Shown: positions 46,121 through 56,632 of the stretch, piece by piece
How positions within the stretch are numbered: position 1 is the first letter of the stretch
Layout of the letters: each line of letters begins with the position of its first letter
Assembly: GCA_963717435.1 (NCBI GenBank)
Contig: OY970332.1
Span: 352,001-416,000 of the forward strand
Direction of reading: 5' to 3'
DNA: 64,000 nucleotides
DNA from: an uncultured bacterium
GTDB taxonomy: Bacteria > Babelota > Babeliae > Babelales > Babelaceae
The notes under the pieces: model-generated
The model's database searches: none
The model's input: the letters and a program-made list of their open reading frames with translations, nothing else
What the model was told of the DNA's origin: nothing
Program-made: the position numbers and the translations under genes

Positions 46121-46555
46121 ATGGAAGATCAAATATTTTACTGGCTATCATTTTTTATATTTTTAGTAATATTTGAAATAGGTAAAACCAAAAAAAATCT
46201 GCGTCTTGCTATAATAATTTCAGCATTGGTGCCAGTTGTTGTCAGTTTTTGTGGATTTAAATTTGATCTGCAACTTGCAGCTTTTGTATTATCTACCGCA
46301 GTTACTTATTTTGTACTCAGAAGTCTTGAGAATAAAAACAAAATTGATAATAATTTTGAACTTTTAGAATTGCATGGAAAAAGGGGAATTGTCACAGAAC
46401 CATTAACGCCGTTTAAGTATGGATTTGTAAAAATTGATGGCCATGTTTGTCCTGCACAATCACTCAGAAATACGTCAATTGAAGTAGGCGCACTAGTTGA
46501 AGTTATAGGAGCTTCAAGCTGCCACATCGTGGTTGAAAAGATCCACGAGTATTAA
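46121..46555 (+). CDS. NfeD-like membrane protein (short form)
   Basis: N-terminal TM helices, then OB-fold GKRGIVTE...GFVKIDG...IEVGALVEVIG. Confidence 0.75.
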   Translation: MEDQIFYWLSFFIFLVIFEIGKTKKNLRLAIIISALVPVVVSFCGFKFDLQLAAFVLSTAVTYFVLRSLENKNKIDNNFELLELHGKRGIVTEPLTPFKYGFVKIDGHVCPAQSLRNTSIEVGALVEVIGASSCHIVVEKIHEY

Positions 46556-46571
46556 AAAAAGGGGAAAGTGT

Positions 46572-47543
46572 ATGTTTGGGGCAAGTTTTTTATTAAAAAA
46601 TAGATTTAGATTTATTACATGCTTAATAATTATTAATATATTTTTGTCAGATTTTAATAATATTATTGCAGATAAAATAGAACTGTCCCCAGAAAATCTT
46701 GAACAAAAATCTGTACCAGCAGTAACACAAGCAACATCAGTACCAGCAGCAAAAAGAAAAGCCAGAACAATAACAATATTTGTTCATGGCTCAATTTTAA
46801 AACTGCCAATCTTGTGGCGCGCAAAAAAGGGCTGCGTAAACGGGCTCGTGCAATATTCTGATATCTGCGACGAATGTGGTTACAAAAAAGTATTGAAACA
46901 TCTTAACGAAGTTGATCCCAATAATTACAGGGCAGAAGATAATTATATGTTCGGTTGGTCGGGTAGCTTGCGATCAGGACGAGGGGAAGAAGCTTCGATA
47001 CAACTTTATGATCAACTTGCAGGACTCGTAGAAGAATATAAAAATAAGTACGGCTATATACCAAATATAAGAATTATAACTCATAGTAATGGCGCCCGGA
47101 TCGCTTTATATTTGGGAAAAACTGCAAAAAGACGAAATAATAAAAACTTCAGGGTCCAAGAAGTAATCATGCTTGCGTGTCCAGTTCAACATATAACAAG
47201 TAAGCTAATACCACAAAGATGCTTCCGAAAAATATATTCGCTTTATTCACTTTCTGATTGGGTCCAAATAATCGCACCACAAAGCTATAAAAAATTTAAG
47301 AAAAAAGAATGCAAAAAATGCTTATCTCCATTCTTTTCAAGCAGATTCTTCCCTGATTACCCTAATTTAATTCAGGCAAAAATCAGGGTAAATAATCGTG
47401 GGATATCACACTCAGGATTCTTAAGACATAAGTTTATAAGAAAACTTCCACAAGTTATTAACGAGCTTGATAATTTGTGGGATAATCCAACACCAAGTTG
47501 TGAAAAAAACAAACCCTGCAGCGTAATAATGGTTAAAGTTTAA
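46572..47543 (+). CDS. Exported alpha/beta hydrolase (lipase-like)
   Basis: IFVHGS, ITHSNG nucleophile elbow, MLACP, YSLSDWV, SH. ATG 46572 follows a GGGG RBS. Confidence 0.7.
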   Translation: MFGASFLLKNRFRFITCLIIINIFLSDFNNIIADKIELSPENLEQKSVPAVTQATSVPAAKRKARTITIFVHGSILKLPILWRAKKGCVNGLVQYSDICDECGYKKVLKHLNEVDPNNYRAEDNYMFGWSGSLRSGRGEEASIQLYDQLAGLVEEYKNKYGYIPNIRIITHSNGARIALYLGKTAKRRNNKNFRVQEVIMLACPVQHITSKLIPQRCFRKIYSLYSLSDWVQIIAPQSYKKFKKKECKKCLSPFFSSRFFPDYPNLIQAKIRVNNRGISHSGFLRHKFIRKLPQVINELDNLWDNPTPSCEKNKPCSVIMVKV

Positions 47544-47572: not shown

Positions 47573-49213
47573 TTGATGAATAGTTTTAAAAAAATATTAT
47601 TTTTAATAAGTTTAGCTGCAATAAATTATAACTTAAATGCTTGGATCGCTGAGCTAAGAATAGAAAATGAAACAGAGTATCCCATTGATGTCCATGTTGA
47701 AACTAAAACAACATTTAATGATTATAATATAGAGCATAATAGAATACTTGATCTAAAACCATTGGAATCGGAGAATCTTAAGAAATTCACAATCAAATAT
47801 TCACCTAAGTATTCATCATACTTGTCAGGCAAAATGAGCCCTCTTGATATAGCAAAAAACATTGAAGAGATAGTTGAAGAGCAAAAGAATATTCACGTCG
47901 ATAATAAGTTAAAAATTCAGATAAAAGAAAATAAAGGGTGGACGCCAAAGGTTGGAGGTTATGGCCTTGTCCCTGAAATCAGTACTAATCAATTAAATGT
48001 TGGCACCGTTTCAATAGACGCTGAGGTTACAATCGAGGGCTTCAACCAAAAAACAAGTTTAGGCCATCAAGATTATAAAATAGATCAAAATCTTAGGACA
48101 TTCAAAGACATTGTAAATCTTATCATCCAGGATTATAAAACTAAAAAACTAAATTCTTACTATTATACTGTCACAGTATATAAATCATCCGGAAAACTCA
48201 TGAGACTTAAGCAAGAAGATTTAAATAAAACTTTAAAGGAATTCGGTTTTATTTATCCGGATACCATTGATATTTATTTTCATGAGACAAAGGAAATGCC
48301 TTTAATTAATTTAAGGGCTTCCATCGTATCGTCAGATTACCCCAAAAAGCCAAAAACAGAACAAATTACTATAGATAAATGGGACAGCCTAGAAAAATTA
48401 ATAAGGGTTCTTTCGGATGCTCATCAGGGATTTGCCAGACTAAAAAAAGATAACAATTATCAAATTAAGTTTGGTGACAAGACATATAAAGGTCCACTAA
48501 ATAGGAGTTTAGGCGAATTAAAATTGAGTGACAATGATGTTATAACATTCATATACCCCTTTATAACTATAAAGTGCAATTTAGTTGAAGTAGAACAAGT
48601 CCCTTCTTTCAGACAACCGAATAAAACTATAAAAGATTCAATTTATATTGCTATTGAAGGTGATAAAACCTTTGGAGAATTAGAACAAAAAATTAAAAAA
48701 GAATCTAAGATTTTTTCAAAAACATTTAGTGAATTAAGATCATTAGACAAACTATATTATGTAGAATTTAATGGCAAAAACAGAGCAGAATATGAAATTT
48801 CAAGCGATGAGACATTATATTCGTTGGGCATAAAAGACAATTCTTTAATCATTTTTAACTATTATGTGGAACAAAAATCCACTTCCAAAACTCAAGGACC
48901 CCAAAAATCTGCGCAGCAATTAGCAAATAGCCCGTACTACATACTTGGCCTTCCTGACAAAGCGGATGATGCTCAAATACTTGGTTTAACTGAGGAACAG
49001 TTAAAAAATAAATCTGAAGTAAAAAAAGCATACTATAAATTAGCGGTGATCTGGCATCCCGATAAAAGAACAACTAATGAGATTGCAATAAAGCGTTATT
49101 CTGATCCAGAAGTTTTAAAAGCTATTGGACCCGATCCTGATGGCAAAAAAATTAAAGCTTTGTCAGAAGAAGTGTTTAAGCTTATTTCTAACGCTTATGA
49201 TCGTAACAATTAA
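47573..49213 (+). CDS. Exported ubiquitin-like-repeat / J-domain protein 1
   Basis: Signal peptide; Ubl-like repeats ending KTLKEFGF, RSLGELKL, ETLYSLGI; J-domain PYYILG...KKAYYKLAVIWHPDK...FKLISNAY. Confidence 0.8.
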   Translation: MMNSFKKILFLISLAAINYNLNAWIAELRIENETEYPIDVHVETKTTFNDYNIEHNRILDLKPLESENLKKFTIKYSPKYSSYLSGKMSPLDIAKNIEEIVEEQKNIHVDNKLKIQIKENKGWTPKVGGYGLVPEISTNQLNVGTVSIDAEVTIEGFNQKTSLGHQDYKIDQNLRTFKDIVNLIIQDYKTKKLNSYYYTVTVYKSSGKLMRLKQEDLNKTLKEFGFIYPDTIDIYFHETKEMPLINLRASIVSSDYPKKPKTEQITIDKWDSLEKLIRVLSDAHQGFARLKKDNNYQIKFGDKTYKGPLNRSLGELKLSDNDVITFIYPFITIKCNLVEVEQVPSFRQPNKTIKDSIYIAIEGDKTFGELEQKIKKESKIFSKTFSELRSLDKLYYVEFNGKNRAEYEISSDETLYSLGIKDNSLIIFNYYVEQKSTSKTQGPQKSAQQLANSPYYILGLPDKADDAQILGLTEEQLKNKSEVKKAYYKLAVIWHPDKRTTNEIAIKRYSDPEVLKAIGPDPDGKKIKALSEEVFKLISNAYDRNN

Positions 49214-49271
49214 GCAAATTAGTTTTAGTATTATAAACAAAACAAAGTTTTAGTTTAGTGAAAGAGGATCC

Positions 49272-50639
49272 ATGAAAAATATTAAAAAAATATTATTTTT
49301 AATAAGTTTTGTCCTGTTAAACACAAATATAAATTCAAATATAGACGTCACTGTTAAATTGCAAGGCATTACAGGTGAAGATATAGAGACAAAAAGTTTT
49401 CCAATCTCAGATACGAATACTTTGCAAAACTTCATAAACAAATTCTTTTCTCTATCCAAAAAACTTAACAAATTTGACAAAGATAATTTGTATTTTATGA
49501 AAATTGATGACAATGAAATAATGTACGATCATAGCAAAAATAAACCATTAGCAGATCTTGGTGTACGAAATAATTCTATAATAGTTTTAATATATAATTA
49601 TTCTAGATCAGACAGCTCGCAAAAACCAAAAGCCAAAACCTCTTTTGAAAGTAAAAATATCAAAAAGATAGACGTTACTGTTAAATTGCAACCCATTATG
49701 GGGCAAAATATAGAGACAAAAGTTTTTTCAATCCTACCTACGGATTCTTTGGAGACTTTGATCAATACATTCTTCTCGCTATCGGAAGCATTTGATAAAT
49801 TTGAAGAATATCTTTTGTATGATATTACAATTGATGGCAATCGAATAGATTATACTTATTATAACAAAAATAGATCATTAGCAGATCTTGGCGTACAAAA
49901 TGATTCTACAATAGTTTTAAAATATTATGATAATTCGAGATCAGGCAGCTCGCAAAAACCAAAAGCCAAAACCTCTTTTGAGAGCAGAATAACCGTTTAT
50001 GTAACATTGATAGAAAGAGTGGGGGCAGCCGCTGTAACAAAAGAGAATAAAATTTATAAAATTTCAAATCAAAAAAGCTTAAGGGATCTGCTTAATGCTT
50101 ACTCATCAAAATCTTCAATTTGGGATTATATAAAATCAGCAAACATGCCTTACTCAATTTATGTTGATGGCCGCCTAATAACTCAATATGATTACTCAAA
50201 AACTTTAGACGCTTTGGGTGTAGAAGACGATTCAAAGATAAATATTGAATATGAAGGCGTTTCCGAAAAACCGCGCGCCCAAAGACCTTATGAATATTAT
50301 CCTAAACAAGAACAGCCACAAAAAACTCAACAACCTGCGCAGCAATTAACAATTAGCCCATACTACATACTTGGCATTCCTGATAAAGCAGGTGATGCTC
50401 AAATACTTGGTTTAACACGAGAGCAGCTAAGAGATAAATCTGAAGTTACAAAGGCTTACAGAAAATTAGCGCTGATCTGGCACCCCGATAAAAGAACAAC
50501 TAACGAGATTGCAAACAAACGTTATTCTGATCCAGAACTTTTAAAAGCTATTGGACCCGATCCTGATGGCAAAAAAATTAAAGCTTTATCAGAAGAGGTG
50601 TTTAAGCTTATTGCTAACGCTTATGATCGTAACAATTAA
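49272..50639 (+). CDS. Exported 3x ubiquitin-like / J-domain protein 2
   Basis: Signal peptide; IDVTVKLQ...LADLGVxNxSxIVLxY twice, plus a third divergent repeat; HPD J-domain. Confidence 0.85.
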   Translation: MKNIKKILFLISFVLLNTNINSNIDVTVKLQGITGEDIETKSFPISDTNTLQNFINKFFSLSKKLNKFDKDNLYFMKIDDNEIMYDHSKNKPLADLGVRNNSIIVLIYNYSRSDSSQKPKAKTSFESKNIKKIDVTVKLQPIMGQNIETKVFSILPTDSLETLINTFFSLSEAFDKFEEYLLYDITIDGNRIDYTYYNKNRSLADLGVQNDSTIVLKYYDNSRSGSSQKPKAKTSFESRITVYVTLIERVGAAAVTKENKIYKISNQKSLRDLLNAYSSKSSIWDYIKSANMPYSIYVDGRLITQYDYSKTLDALGVEDDSKINIEYEGVSEKPRAQRPYEYYPKQEQPQKTQQPAQQLTISPYYILGIPDKAGDAQILGLTREQLRDKSEVTKAYRKLALIWHPDKRTTNEIANKRYSDPELLKAIGPDPDGKKIKALSEEVFKLIANAYDRNN

Positions 50640-50697
50640 GTAAATTAGTTTTAGTATTATAAATAAAACAAAGTTTTAGTTTAGTGAAAGAGGATCC

Positions 50698-52065
50698 ATG
50701 AAAAATATTAAAAAAATATTATTTTTAATAAGTTTTGTCCTGTTAAACACAAATATAAATTCAAATATAGACGTCACTGTTAAATTGCAAGGCATTACAG
50801 GTGAAGATATAGAGACAAAAAGTTTTCCAATCTCAGATACGAATACTTTGCAAAACTTCATAAACAAATTCTTTTCTCTATCCAAAAAACTTAACAAATT
50901 TGACAAAGATAATTTGTATTTTATGAAAATTGATGACAATGAAATAATGTACGATCATAGCAAAAATAAACCATTAGCAGATCTTGGTGTACGAAATAAT
51001 TCTATAATAGTTTTAATATATAATTATTCTAGATCAGACAGCTCGCAAAAACCAAAAGCCAAAACCTCTTTTGAAAGTAAAAATATCAAAAAGATAGACG
51101 TTACTGTTAAATTGCAACCCATTATGGGGCAAAATATAGAGACAAAAGTTTTTTCAATCCTACCTACGGATTCTTTGGAGACTTTGATCAATACATTCTT
51201 CTCGCTATCGGAAGCATTTGATAAATTTGAAGAATATCTTTTGTATGATATTACAATTGATGGCAATCGAATAGATTATACTTATTATAACAAAAATAGA
51301 TCATTAGCAGATCTTGGCGTACAAAATGATTCTACAATAGTTTTAAAATATTATGATAATTCGAGATCAGGCAGCTCGCAAAAACCAAAAGCCAAAACCT
51401 CTTTTGAGAGCAGAATAACCGTTTATGTAACATTGATAGAAAGAGTGGGGGCAGCCGCTGTAACAAAAGAGAATAAAATTTATAAAATTTCAAATCAAAA
51501 AAGCTTAAGGGATCTGCTTAATGCTTACTCATCAAAATCTTCAATTTGGGATTATATAAAATCAGCAAACATGCCTTACTCAATTTATGTTGATGGCCGC
51601 CTAATAACTCAATATGATTACTCAAAAACTTTAGACACTTTGGGTGTAGAAGACGATTCAAAGATAAATATTGAATATGAAGGCGTTTCCGAAAAACCGC
51701 GCGCCCAAAGACCTTATGAATATTATCCTAAACAAGAACAGCCACAAAAAACTCAACAACCTGCGCAGCAATTAACAATTAGCCCATACTACATACTTGG
51801 CATTCCTGATAAAGCAGGTGATGCTCAAATACTTGGTTTAACACGAGAGCAGCTAAGAGATAAATCTGAAGTTACAAAGGCTTACAGAAAATTAGCGCTG
51901 ATCTGGCACCCCGATAAAAGAACAACTAACGAGATTGCAAACAAACGTTATTCTGATCCAGAACTTTTAAAAGCTATTGGACCCGATCCTGATGGCAAAA
52001 AAATTAAAGCTTTATCAGAAGAGGTGTTTAAGCTTATTGCTAACGCTTATGATCGTAACAATTAA
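50698..52065 (+). CDS. Exported 3x ubiquitin-like / J-domain protein 3 (duplicate of protein 2)
   Basis: Near-identical to 49272..50639. Confidence 0.8.
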   Translation: MKNIKKILFLISFVLLNTNINSNIDVTVKLQGITGEDIETKSFPISDTNTLQNFINKFFSLSKKLNKFDKDNLYFMKIDDNEIMYDHSKNKPLADLGVRNNSIIVLIYNYSRSDSSQKPKAKTSFESKNIKKIDVTVKLQPIMGQNIETKVFSILPTDSLETLINTFFSLSEAFDKFEEYLLYDITIDGNRIDYTYYNKNRSLADLGVQNDSTIVLKYYDNSRSGSSQKPKAKTSFESRITVYVTLIERVGAAAVTKENKIYKISNQKSLRDLLNAYSSKSSIWDYIKSANMPYSIYVDGRLITQYDYSKTLDTLGVEDDSKINIEYEGVSEKPRAQRPYEYYPKQEQPQKTQQPAQQLTISPYYILGIPDKAGDAQILGLTREQLRDKSEVTKAYRKLALIWHPDKRTTNEIANKRYSDPELLKAIGPDPDGKKIKALSEEVFKLIANAYDRNN

Positions 52066-52087: not shown

Positions 52088-52129
52088 AATAAAACAGGGC
52101 CAAGAGATTTAACTTGGCCCTGTTTTATT
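52088..52129. terminator. Bidirectional terminator hairpin
   Basis: aataaaacagggccaag-agatttaa-cttggccctgttttatt. Confidence 0.8.
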
Positions 52130-54904: not shown

Positions 54905-54980
54905 GAGCCGCTAGCTCAGTCGGTAGAGCAACAGCCTTTTAAGCTGTGGGTCGTTGGTTCGATTCCAACGCGGCTCACCA
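54905..54980 (+). tRNA. tRNA-Lys(UUU)
   Basis: Cloverleaf: acceptor gagccgc/gcggctc, anticodon loop CTTTTAA, GGTTCGATTCC, encoded CCA. Confidence 0.97.
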
Positions 54981-55096: not shown

Positions 55097-55174
55097 GTCC
55101 CTATCGTCTAGCCCGGTCCAGGACGTCGCCCTTTCACGGCGAAAACAGGGGTTCGAATCCCCTTAGGGACGCCA
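55097..55174 (+). tRNA. tRNA-Glu(UUC)
   Basis: Acceptor gtcccta/tagggac, anticodon loop CTTTCAC, GGTTCGAATCC, encoded CCA. Confidence 0.97.
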
Positions 55175-56632
55175 TACTTGATCATCCGAACATTTTAGGA
55201 TGAGATCGAATGGCGTTTGCGCGATGTAATCGATGTTTTCACCTTTCACCGTCAAGTTCGATAGTATAAATTTGATTAATTGCCTTTTTTCCTCAACTTC
55301 AGAACTCACAAAAAGATCATGCGCTTCGCTTGCTATCTTCAGCAGGCACTTTGTCGTAATATAATAGTTATCTTCTGCATCTTGTAATTGTTCAAGTCTT
55401 ATAGAAATATCTGTGATTTGATCTCTAAAGGTTTGGTAAAATCTGTCATACTCGCTATCAGTAATACGCCCTTTGAGTTTATCAAGATAAAGATTATCCA
55501 TCATTTTGCTTATTGTTTTTTGCTCCCTAGTGAGATTCTCAAACTGCTGAGTTTGAAATTCAACCTTGTTTTGATGGAGCTCGCTTAAAGTATCAATAAC
55601 CTGCTTTGCAATATCTTTGGGCATTTGAAGATTCTTAAAAACTCTTTCAAGTTGTCTGGTTATCTCTTCTTCTCGCAACCATGTTGCATCATGTTTGCCA
55701 TTATATTGCGTGCAATGGTAGTAAACAAATCCTTTATGCTTTTCTGGGGTTATGGCTAAACCACAATCTGCGCAACGCATAAGACCTCGATAGATATATG
55801 GCTTACCCGCATATTTAATTGGCTTCTTATTAAAACTTGTTTTAATTTTTTGAACTTTTTCAAAAAGCGCTAAATTAATAAGTGGCGGATATTTATGAGG
55901 ATAAGTTTTTCCTTTGACTACCATAATGCCATAGTAAAAGTGATTATTAAATACTTTATCAATATAGCTAACTCTCCAATCAAGACCATAATCTCTTTTA
56001 ATTTTTTGCATAATAAGAGCCATTGAATAAGCTCCAGTTGCATAAAGCTCAAAAGCATTCTTAACAATCTGCGATGCCATATTCATCAACAATAATATCT
56101 GTTTTATCACCGGTCAAGTAGCAATATTTTTATAGCCATAAGGAGCTTTGGCAAGCCATTCACCTTTACGAAGCTTTTGCTCCATAGCTCGTTTAACATT
56201 GTCTCTGATAGCATCTGAATAATATTTTGCTAATCCAAGACTGATCCCAAATTGAAATTTTTCTACAGCAGAAATTCTGCTATTAATTATTTGACCATCA
56301 GAAACAAAATGAAGTTCTATTTCATCATTTAATGCTTTTTCATAAAGAGTAGAGATACTCGTTTATCAAACATATTGCGTGAAAGTCTATCTACTTTATC
56401 GCAGCAAACAGCAATCTTTTCTTTTTGCTCGATTAATAAAATCAATTATCCGATCAAATTCTGCTCTGTTGATCTTTATAAGCACTTTCATCAAAGCTAC
56501 AAACTCTTTATAATATGTCAAAGCCTTTACTTTTGGCAATAATTTTCAAGTCTTGCTAATTTGAGCTGGTAACGAAAGCCCTGCTTCTTTTTGTTCTTCG
56601 GTACTAACACGGGCTATTATAATTGCTTGCAT
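55163..56632 (-). pseudogene. Large serine recombinase, frameshifted in the N-terminal part
   Basis: MQAIIIARVSTEEQ at 56632; DKVDRLSRN; Zn-ribbon CADCG...YYHC and coiled coil in ORF 55163..56110. Stop codon lies inside tRNA-Glu. Confidence 0.85.

Follow-up and report, generated by a model that had tools for sequence, protein, structure and literature searches.

Three adjacent genes on the forward strand of a Babeliales genome encode proteins in which a likely signal peptide, three ubiquitin-like (UBL) repeats of about 90 amino acids and a C-terminal J-domain are combined in a single polypeptide, an architecture referred to below as UBL3-J. The genes occupy positions 47573-52065 of the stretch analysed here, which comprises 64,000 nucleotides (positions 352,001 to 416,000 of contig OY970332.1, assembly GCA_963717435.1) and is called the window. 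All three tandem open reading frames (ORFs) are open and lie on the same strand (+). A first-pass annotation, made from the sequence without database searches, had described three tandem genes, each with a signal peptide, three repeats and a J-domain carrying an intact HPD motif. This architecture was found in all three genes, at the positions listed below; the products of genes 2 and 3, however, differ by one amino acid only, so that two distinct proteins and a near-copy of one of them are encoded. The core parts of the genes had been described correctly, but a 123-residue region in gene 1, an insertion in the J-domain and its shortened C-terminus had been omitted. The ORF list starts gene 1 at a TTG codon at 47573, which adds one codon; the 545-amino-acid form is present in the protein database. 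The parts of the array are as follows.

47576..49213, + strand: gene 1, with signal peptide, N-terminal region, three UBL repeats and J-domain; 545 aa from the ATG
47576..47641, + strand: gene 1 signal-peptide-like segment, residues 1-22 (MNSFKK, hydrophobic core, NLNA); called heuristically (ten-residue Kyte-Doolittle mean, KD10, 3.05; two K/R before the core; no later transmembrane (TM) segment)
47642..48010, + strand: gene 1 N-terminal region, 123 aa (residues 23-145); no family and no detectable relatives
48011..48286, + strand: gene 1 UBL repeat 1, from the repeat alignment and profile
48302..48562, + strand: gene 1 UBL repeat 2, from the repeat alignment and profile
48563..48868, + strand: gene 1 UBL repeat 3, from the repeat alignment and profile
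48929..49210, + strand: gene 1 J-domain, Pfam match; HPD, an insertion after HPD, end after helix III
49272..50639, + strand: gene 2, with signal peptide, three UBL repeats, Q/P-rich linker and J-domain; 455 aa
49272..49337, + strand: gene 2 signal-peptide-like segment, residues 1-22 (KD10 3.32; three K before the core)
49338..49601, + strand: gene 2 UBL repeat 1, the repeat used for modelling; structure model
49665..49931, + strand: gene 2 UBL repeat 2, with 55% identity to the first repeat
49986..50258, + strand: gene 2 UBL repeat 3, from the repeat alignment and profile
50355..50636, + strand: gene 2 J-domain, Pfam match; HPD at residues 404-406
50698..52065, + strand: gene 3, a near-identical copy of gene 2 (A314T); 455 aa
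52088..52129, no strand: 17-bp hairpin found by folding, with an A-run on one side and a T-run on the other, between gene 3 and a convergent RluD-like gene

The repeats of the two distinct proteins can be recognized from one another. A hidden Markov model (HMM) built from the gene 2 repeats found gene 1 with an E-value of 2.2e-5, and the reverse search gave 1.3e-6; among the 1,658 ORFs of the genome no other was found at E <= 10 in this non-circular test. The repeat profile (A1) finds nine copies in the genome and no further ORF beyond the three genes. AlphaFold2 modelled repeat 1 of gene 2, from a seven-row repeat alignment, with a pLDDT of 90.6 and a pTM of 0.81, and the secondary-structure order of the model is b-b-a-b-b-(short a)-b. 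On comparison of this model with the PDB by Foldseek, the top matches were ubiquitin, SUMO, NEDD8 and the UBL of HOIL-1L (best E 7.6e-4, probability 1.00, TM 0.6-0.78). VIA-align, a search independent of Foldseek, placed the UBL of Ddi2 first (Z 10.9, rmsd 2.3, 77 aligned), followed by the UBLs of TBCE and HOIL-1L, Rad60 SLD2 (Z 10.1) and the Dsk2 UBL. The bacterial beta-grasp protein YukD was found at Z 9.1, less than two Z units below the best match; since bacterial beta-grasp proteins come this close, the structure fixes the ubiquitin-like fold but not the subfamily. By these models the repeats are predicted to adopt a ubiquitin/SUMO-like beta-grasp fold, in keeping with the fold proposed in the first-pass annotation. 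The accompanying proposal, that the repeats lack a terminal GG and are integral domains, was likewise borne out, as the domains are internal and none of the six distinct repeats has a GG within its last 15 residues.

At the level of sequence, the repeats are tied to the Pfam ubiquitin and Rad60-SLD families through transitive links only. The best PDB match of the repeat profile is the Ddi1 UBL (E 1.3e-3), and its search of 1.84 billion representatives gave the small tandem-UBL proteins P0007 (E 4.3e-9) and P0012 (E 3e-4), both of which lie above the Pfam cut-off for the ubiquitin or Rad60-SLD families (67.5 bits for Rad60-SLD in P0012). A wider profile, from an alignment (A3) that includes P0007, P0009 and P0012, matched mostly SUMO/SMT3 chains in the PDB, and these weakly (best E 0.0024); this alignment mis-registers the first two strands and was kept out of the folding. 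In the ESM Atlas, the leads for the repeat region all scored under 0.9 and fell mainly in ubiquitin or Rad60-SLD clusters, and the whole protein gave no usable match. The ubiquitin pattern that had been claimed thus holds for the fold, while the weak sequence affinities are closer to SUMO/SMT3 and the Ddi1 UBL than to ubiquitin itself.

These matches bear on one possible function, in which the UBL array would dock on host Rpn1, Rpn10 or Rpn13 or on p97 adaptors while the J-domain loads Hsp70, so that clients are bridged to degradation in a manner similar to sacsin or BAG1. The best structural matches do include proteasome-shuttle UBLs, with Ddi2 at the top and Dsk2 and Rad23 within about two Z units of it; the first place of the Ddi1 UBL in the profile search, and the presence of the AtBAG1 UBL–HSP70 complex among the fold matches (rank 27), point the same way. 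In sacsin itself, a UbL that binds the proteasome and a J-domain that is functional are part of one protein (PMC2667285). UBLs with other partners, however, tie within one to two Z units (TBCE, HOIL-1L, Rad60 SLD2, USP7, kindlin, YukD and MoaD), and the wider profile leans to SUMO/SMT3. Furthermore, the residues that are invariant among the six distinct repeats are confined to the core, and the place of ubiquitin Ile44 may be taken by K, T, Y, K and E in five of the six repeats. This last assignment uses a secondary-structure register against the structure of ubiquitin, in which repeat 1 of gene 1 is ambiguous; an alignment by MAFFT with two Babeliales ubiquitin-like ORFs puts the equivalent residue elsewhere, and the register is unreliable. 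On balance, docking on the proteasome is speculative and considered unlikely.

The J-domains score 34.9, 39.5 and 39.5 bits (genes 1, 2 and 3) against the Pfam DnaJ model PF00226, which has a cut-off of 27.8; all are C-terminal and contain HPD. J-domains were also what the segment matched in the PDB, with DNAJC3 as the best (E 9.3e-5). A basic helix II, the HPD between helices II and III and the F..I..AY signature of helix III are all present (KAYRKLALIWHPDK and EEVFKLIANAY). Five members of this J subtype, from three genomes, share W-H-P-D, A-Y, F, K, I, A and Y without variation. The subtype is marked by a doubled 'ILG' in the helix I region, an insertion of about 25 residues after HPD and an early C-terminal end. 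Class A and B DnaJ/Hsp40 proteins are characterized by a G/F region, a zinc-finger and C-terminal client-binding domains. The NCBIfam DnaJ equivalogs gave 18-24 bits against cut-offs of 338-619, over the J-domain span only, which places the UBL3-J proteins outside these classes. Comparison of genes 1 and 2 over 104 J-coding codons gave a dN of 0.084 and a dS of 0.30 (dN/dS about 0.28), a ratio which indicates that the J-domain is under purifying selection.

A complex of the J-domain (five-row alignment) with residues 1-510 of the DnaK of the same genome and ATP was predicted with a score of 0.56, compared with 0.00 for the best of three controls; the partner had a pLDDT of 84 or more, and 92% or more of the contacts were the same between runs. 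Of 80 solved complexes, 58 reach the mark applied to such predictions, as do 2 of 110 mismatches; scores of 0.60 or less were obtained by 7 of those 58 and by both mismatches. As J-DnaK complexes have already been solved, passing the mark may show likeness only, and the prediction lends weak support to a J-domain–DnaK complex.

The N-termini of the three proteins begin with two to three lysines, continue with a hydrophobic core of about ten residues (ten-residue Kyte-Doolittle mean 3.05-3.32) and close with a polar, Asn-rich stretch that ends in a small residue; the sequence is MKNIKK / ILFLISFVLL / NTNINS in gene 2 and MNSFKK / ILFLISLAAI / NYNLNA in gene 1. Signal peptides were called here and in related genomes with a crude heuristic of our own, which considers the basic residues before the core, a Kyte-Doolittle window and later TM segments. 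By this heuristic no later TM or hydrophobic segment is present, and the N-termini contain no Cys that could form a lipobox. The UBL3-J proteins therefore likely carry a cleavable Sec (type I) signal peptide, as judged from these sequence features. A core of this length is short for a membrane-spanning helix and the charges follow the positive-inside rule, so the body of the protein is expected to lie outside.

The same features bear on a second possibility, namely that the N-terminus is an uncleaved membrane anchor and that, in the manner of DjlA, a cytoplasmic J-domain brings the DnaK of the bacterium itself to the membrane. The genome encodes one DnaK, which has no signal peptide, and one canonical DnaJ, located elsewhere in the genome; together with the complex prediction, these provide some room for such a role. 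The extra DnaJ-domain proteins of Babela are also read as chaperones (PMC4378268). An anchor of this kind is nevertheless at odds with the N-terminus: the two to three lysines before a core of about ten residues, with polar and acidic residues after it, predict an N-in, C-out orientation, and 85% of the non-DnaJ J-domain ORFs in related genomes show the same layout. The charge layout of DjlA is the opposite. A DjlA-like anchor is thus regarded as quite improbable.

With respect to export beyond the inner membrane, two secretins and an ATPase of the type found in type II secretion systems (T2SS) were found in the genome. A T2SS with two gspD copies was reported for all TM6 genomes (PMC4776705). 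In C. destructans, 44% of the coding sequences were described as having signal peptides, effectors are thought to be secreted and vesicles were reported (PMC6561590), and the Dependentiae literature takes Sec signals as marking host-directed proteins (PMC6561590 and PMC4378268). A second copy of the T2SS-type ATPase (PF00437), at contig positions 297436-298582 (-), contains several stop codons; the intact copy is at 989676-990809.

Since a Sec signal alone reaches only the periplasm, the proteins might also be retained in the envelope, in the periplasm or at the surface, where a J-like domain would serve without Hsp70 and the UBLs would act as spacers or adhesion modules. No marker of a type III (T3SS, FHIPEP) or type IV (T4SS, VirB4) secretion system was found to take them further, the J-domain is shortened and contains an insertion, and beta-grasp domains are, as is generally known, common in bacterial envelope proteins. 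It is difficult to reconcile such a role with the HPD and the helix II/III signature, which are invariant in five members from three genomes, or with the dN/dS of about 0.28. J-domains are known only with Hsp70, neither Hsp70 nor ATP is known in the periplasm, and the sole DnaK of the genome is without a signal peptide; moreover, proteins of the same design in related genomes carry WD40 and ankyrin modules. Envelope retention is accordingly held to be unlikely, to about the same degree as docking on the proteasome.

The distribution of the architecture was examined at several levels. A word-index search of 5.8 billion clusters returned only the three proteins themselves (a relative of 249 amino acids lies just below its length window), and an HMM scan of 1.84 billion representatives found no other repeat-bearing protein at E < 1e-13. 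With the repeat profile, 36 genomes of the same family gave no match and 24 of the same order gave two marginal ones, in a frame of 1588 amino acids (E 0.003) and in one of 578 (E 0.009). In related genomes, as in the larger collections, the UBL3-J fusion was found in this genome only. Full-text literature searches, which did not reach the supplementary lists of PMC4378268 and PMC6561590, gave no bacterial signal-peptide-UBL-J protein and no study that treats the J-domain proteins of Dependentiae as effectors for secretion. The first-pass annotation had named no described bacterial case of this architecture, and no match to it came from the database or literature searches made here.

The J subtype, on the other hand, has a wider distribution than the fusion. 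A fourth paralogue in the same genome (contig positions 471038-471964, 308 aa) has a signal-peptide-like N-terminus, an unrelated middle part and a J-domain that is 65-74% identical to those of the array, and in two other Babeliales genomes the subtype occurs in proteins of 249 and 257 amino acids composed of a signal peptide, an unfamiliar domain and the J-domain. The 308-aa paralogue is followed by a signal-peptide-bearing ORF of 296 amino acids, and the J-gene of the relative G191 is likewise followed by a signal-peptide-bearing, helical ORF. By eye, the 123-residue N-terminal region of gene 1 had appeared similar to the middle domains of these relatives; this was discarded, as phmmer found no match among those at E <= 10. 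A single marginal match of the region was obtained with an ORF of its own genome (E 0.006, phmmer). An ORF of 818 amino acids at contig positions 1080823-1083279 has a signal-peptide-like N-terminus and a Pfam DnaJ match of 32.2 bits that covers the full profile length with an insertion and has no HPD; J-domain matches with the same 234-nt span recur family-wide in frames of 670-860 amino acids.

Forty genomes of the same family (0.5-2.1 Mb) have one to eight J-domain matches each, and 40 loci were taken from that list, best-scoring first, with canonical DnaJ of about 380-400 amino acids, the conserved class of 670-860 amino acids and very short frames omitted. The signal-peptide heuristic was positive in 41 of 48 non-DnaJ J-domain ORFs, whereas it was positive in 43 of 98 neighbouring ORFs and in none of the 30 canonical DnaJ. 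Among the seven misses, visual inspection showed four that have the segment after an internal Met or lack only the basic residue, and many of the signal-peptide-like J-domain ORFs have AxA-like sites. A Pfam scan, which covered 20 proteins, mostly J-domain ORFs of these loci, revealed two fusions of a signal peptide, a WD40 propeller and a J-domain in one genome, one of a signal peptide, ankyrin repeats and a J-domain, and one of a signal peptide, a J-domain and pentapeptide repeats; the remaining J-domain ORFs scanned consist of the J-domain and sequence without a family. A signal peptide plus J-domain with a swappable interaction module thus appears, from these sequences, to be a recurrent design throughout the family.

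Ubiquitin-like proteins with export signals form a second recurrent class. Among 200 other Babeliales genomes, 18 have a match to PF00240, as against 0 of 14 control genomes; the genome of the array has no match at E <= 0.01. Twelve of the Babeliales ubiquitin-like ORFs were fetched: 11 look exported, none ends in GG, none has a J-domain and some are near-canonical ubiquitin. The repeat profile A1 misses them. As signal-peptide-J and signal-peptide-ubiquitin-like proteins each recur in the order, the UBL3-J proteins can be described as a fusion of two recurrent, export-tagged modules. In the Babeliales genome G187, three adjacent genes of the signal-peptide-ubiquitin-like class lie at about 18.9-21.9 kb of contig C9. 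One Babeliales ubiquitin-like ORF (665+ aa) seems by eye to be a multi-UBL tandem and another holds two UBLs.

The history of the array could be traced in part from its repeats. Gene 3 arose through a tandem duplication of 1426 bp (49214-50639 and 50640-52065), whose two copies differ by three nucleotides and one amino acid (A314T). The duplicated unit starts in shared sequence directly after the stop codon of gene 1, and the J-coding 3' ends that precede the copies are near-identical; at the extreme 3' end, genes 1 and 2 are identical in 116 of 120 nucleotides. The first 38 nucleotides of these two genes are 92% identical, compared with a protein identity of 15-23% in the UBL parts. The first two repeats of gene 2, linkers included, represent an internal duplication of 327-333 nt (55% amino acid identity). 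We propose two processes for the growth of the array: the UBL unit was duplicated internally, and unequal crossing-over took place where the J-coding 3' ends are conserved. Such a pattern is in line with a J-domain under purifying selection, recombination at conserved ends and a fast-changing middle, and the locus can be taken as a picture of effector diversification, in which the conserved signal-peptide- and J-coding ends serve as recombination handles around that middle.

A locus of this kind could also consist of recent acquisitions or duplicates that drift without function, which would be compatible with a family limited to one genome and with the very recent duplication of gene 2 into gene 3. 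Against this, all frames are open, the J-domain shows purifying selection, a repeat could be modelled with a pLDDT of 90.6 and four paralogues retain the signal-peptide and J ends, so that the absence of function is very improbable and the least probable of the alternatives considered.

The organism is supported as host-dependent by its order, by the size of its genome (1,198,203 bp in a single contig, 34.6% GC) and by three genes for TLC-type nucleotide (ATP/ADP) translocases, a type found in 0 of 14 control genomes; in our reading the host would be a protist. The order Babeliales belongs to the phylum Dependentiae (TM6). Among metagenome reads, short contigs of 151-254 nt without differing letters were found in four runs from three studies, together with one unrelated 3.6-kb contig that shares 20 nt; no RNA run was listed with the sequence. 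None of these contigs uniquely spans the junction of genes 2 and 3, and they bear neither on expression and habitat nor on the duplication.

Taken together, the evidence is best accommodated if the UBL3-J proteins are exported, non-conjugatable, host-directed co-chaperone adaptors of Hsp70, a reading which is given a probability somewhat above one half (roughly 55%). The signal peptide would carry the protein across the inner membrane, and release would follow through a T2SS-type secretin or in vesicles. In a host compartment, the C-terminal J-domain, through its HPD, would then engage a eukaryotic Hsp70 and trigger its ATPase, and the array of three UBLs may serve as a targeting or mimicry module that sets where, or on what, Hsp70 works. 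The proteins would represent one variant of the family-wide design in which a signal peptide and a J-domain are combined with a module such as WD40, ankyrin, pentapeptide repeats or an orphan domain. J-domains are not known to have a partner other than Hsp70, and the periplasm is not known to contain Hsp70 or ATP. A host Hsp70 is inferred because of this exclusive pairing and the lack of Hsp70 and ATP in the periplasm, together with the precedent of the effector HopI1 and the literature on Sec signals in Dependentiae. The first-pass annotation had likewise proposed an exported J-domain protein that acts on host Hsp70. Its core is strengthened by the family-wide signal-peptide-J class and by the signal-peptide-ubiquitin-like proteins of relatives; with respect to delivery into the host cytosol, Sec and T2SS-type secretins were found, but no T3SS or T4SS marker.

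Several observations weigh against a host-directed adaptor. The heuristic is positive in 455 of the 970 ORFs of at least 150 amino acids in this genome (47%), and hence the N-terminal signal is enriched in the J-domain class but not specific to it. The genome, a single contig with a completeness of 88.8%, gave no match to PF00771 (FHIPEP) or PF03135 (VirB4) at E <= 0.001, and the proteins have no known path to the host cytosol from the periplasm or a vacuole. The J-domain is atypical in three respects: the Pfam match covers profile positions 4-43 of 63, about 25 residues are inserted between HPD and helix III, and helix IV is lacking, as the proteins stop four to eight residues past helix III. 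With regard to the repeats, none lies above the Pfam cut-off for ubiquitin (PF00240) or Rad60-SLD (PF11976), so that the Pfam ubiquitin model misses them, and, because only core residues are shared by the six UBLs, no common binding surface is evident. The full-length AlphaFold2 model, from a three-row alignment, was poor (pLDDT 46.2) and served for the secondary-structure order only. Even so, an exported Hsp70 adaptor agrees better with the charge layout, the HPD signature and the selection data than envelope retention, a DjlA-like anchor or a lack of function.

A broader and more tentative proposal builds on the adaptor reading. Dependentiae may export a repertoire of J-adaptors, each with its own eukaryote-type recognition module, that re-aim host Hsp70 and would be the bacterial equivalent of the J-proteins exported by the malaria parasite. 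In the present case the three UBLs would imitate a chain of SUMO or ubiquitin units, thereby coupling Hsp70 to proteins that read these chains (SIM, UIM or UBA proteins, STUbLs and proteasome shuttles); this is seen as possible, though it is clearly the less probable of the two proposals. As Sec and a secretin would release the proteins into the lumen of a vacuole, a lumenal Hsp70 such as BiP could be the target if the vacuole communicates with the endoplasmic reticulum (ER).

The remaining features of the window lie within or around the array. The hairpin at 52088-52129 has a folding energy of -27 kcal/mol (z -8.1), with none of 200 shuffles equally good; it was seen by folding and is absent from the output of a consensus terminator scan, and is likely a two-way terminator that closes the array. 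Antisense ORFs of 80-87 amino acids within genes 2 and 3 (49250-49513, 49598-49840, 50676-50939 and 51024-51266, all on the - strand) were duplicated along with the genes and probably only mirror the coding strand, which is rich in repeats. The ORF directly upstream of gene 1 (46533-47543, +, 336 aa) starts with a signal-peptide-like segment and contains the GxSxG-like motif THSNG; it matches no family of Pfam or NCBIfam above the cut-off and could be a secreted hydrolase. Further downstream, an ORF of 315 amino acids (55163-56110, -) shows two domains of large serine recombinases, Recombinase and zinc-ribbon, with no resolvase domain in frame. It overlaps the 3' end of a tRNA-Glu gene, which is next to a tRNA-Lys gene (tRNAs at 54905-54980 and 55097-55174, +), and the ORFs that come after it at 56.8-60.5 kb gave no family; the region is possibly the remnant of an integrated element.

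J-domain proteins set where and on what Hsp70 acts, and exported J-adaptors could therefore redirect the chaperone of a host without the need for any enzyme. Few such exported cases are known, and HopI1 is the bacterial one documented in the literature searched. The present locus led to two recurrent classes of Babeliales proteins which are uncharacterised in the literature searched, namely signal-peptide-J proteins with swappable modules and signal-peptide-ubiquitin-like proteins. If the adaptor reading is true, these would provide a handle on the manipulation of protist hosts by Dependentiae and a natural form of 'programmable' Hsp70 recruitment.

HopI1 of Pseudomonas syringae was described as an effector whose C-terminal J-domain binds plant Hsp70, stimulates its ATPase and relocates it (review PMC8150971). 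It differs from the UBL3-J proteins in that it is injected through a T3SS and has no UBL, whereas the latter have a Sec-type N-terminus, no FHIPEP match in their genome and a J-domain with an insertion and without helix IV. The two are similar in the C-terminal position of the J-domain, which in the UBL3-J proteins is preceded by a Q/P-rich stretch. HopI1 reportedly has a P/Q-rich repeat region as well. A second parallel is found in Plasmodium falciparum, which lives inside host cells and exports a set of J-domain proteins into them (PMC9470956). In contrast to the bacterium described here, it is a eukaryotic parasite, and its proteins have no UBL arrays. The export signal of Plasmodium is the PEXEL motif.

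Within the phylum, Babela massiliensis (TM6) was reported to have three lineage-specific DnaJ-domain proteins, which were read as an excess of chaperones, perhaps linked to cell division; extra DnaJ-domain proteins and signal-peptide-bearing host-interaction proteins are thus common to both organisms, and no UBL fusion appears in the main-text passages on the DnaJ proteins (PMC4378268). Sacsin also has a UbL and a J-domain in one polypeptide; its UbL co-precipitates a proteasome subunit and its J-domain works in DnaJ-swap complementation (PMC2667285). It is a eukaryotic cytosolic protein of 4579 amino acids with one N-terminal UbL, 43% identical to that of Rad23, and is not exported. No sequence relationship between sacsin and the UBL3-J proteins was detected beyond the domain families.

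The repeats, for their part, resemble two further groups of proteins. Among their structure and profile matches is the ubiquitin-like protein of Bacteroides fragilis (PDB 8hm2/8hm1), which is presumably exported and without a terminal GG. Like the signal-peptide-ubiquitin-like proteins of Babeliales, it is bacterial and combines a signal peptide with a eukaryote-type ubiquitin fold; these proteins have single or double UBLs and no J-domain, and the UBL3-J repeats are more diverged. Rad60, Esc2 and NIP45 have tandem, integral, non-conjugated SUMO-like domains, in which they are similar to the present array, but they are nuclear eukaryotic proteins with two such domains and no J-domain, and the similarity is weak (best E 0.0024). 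It is concluded that secreted J-domain effectors are already known as a kind, while the fusion of three UBLs with a J-domain is new.

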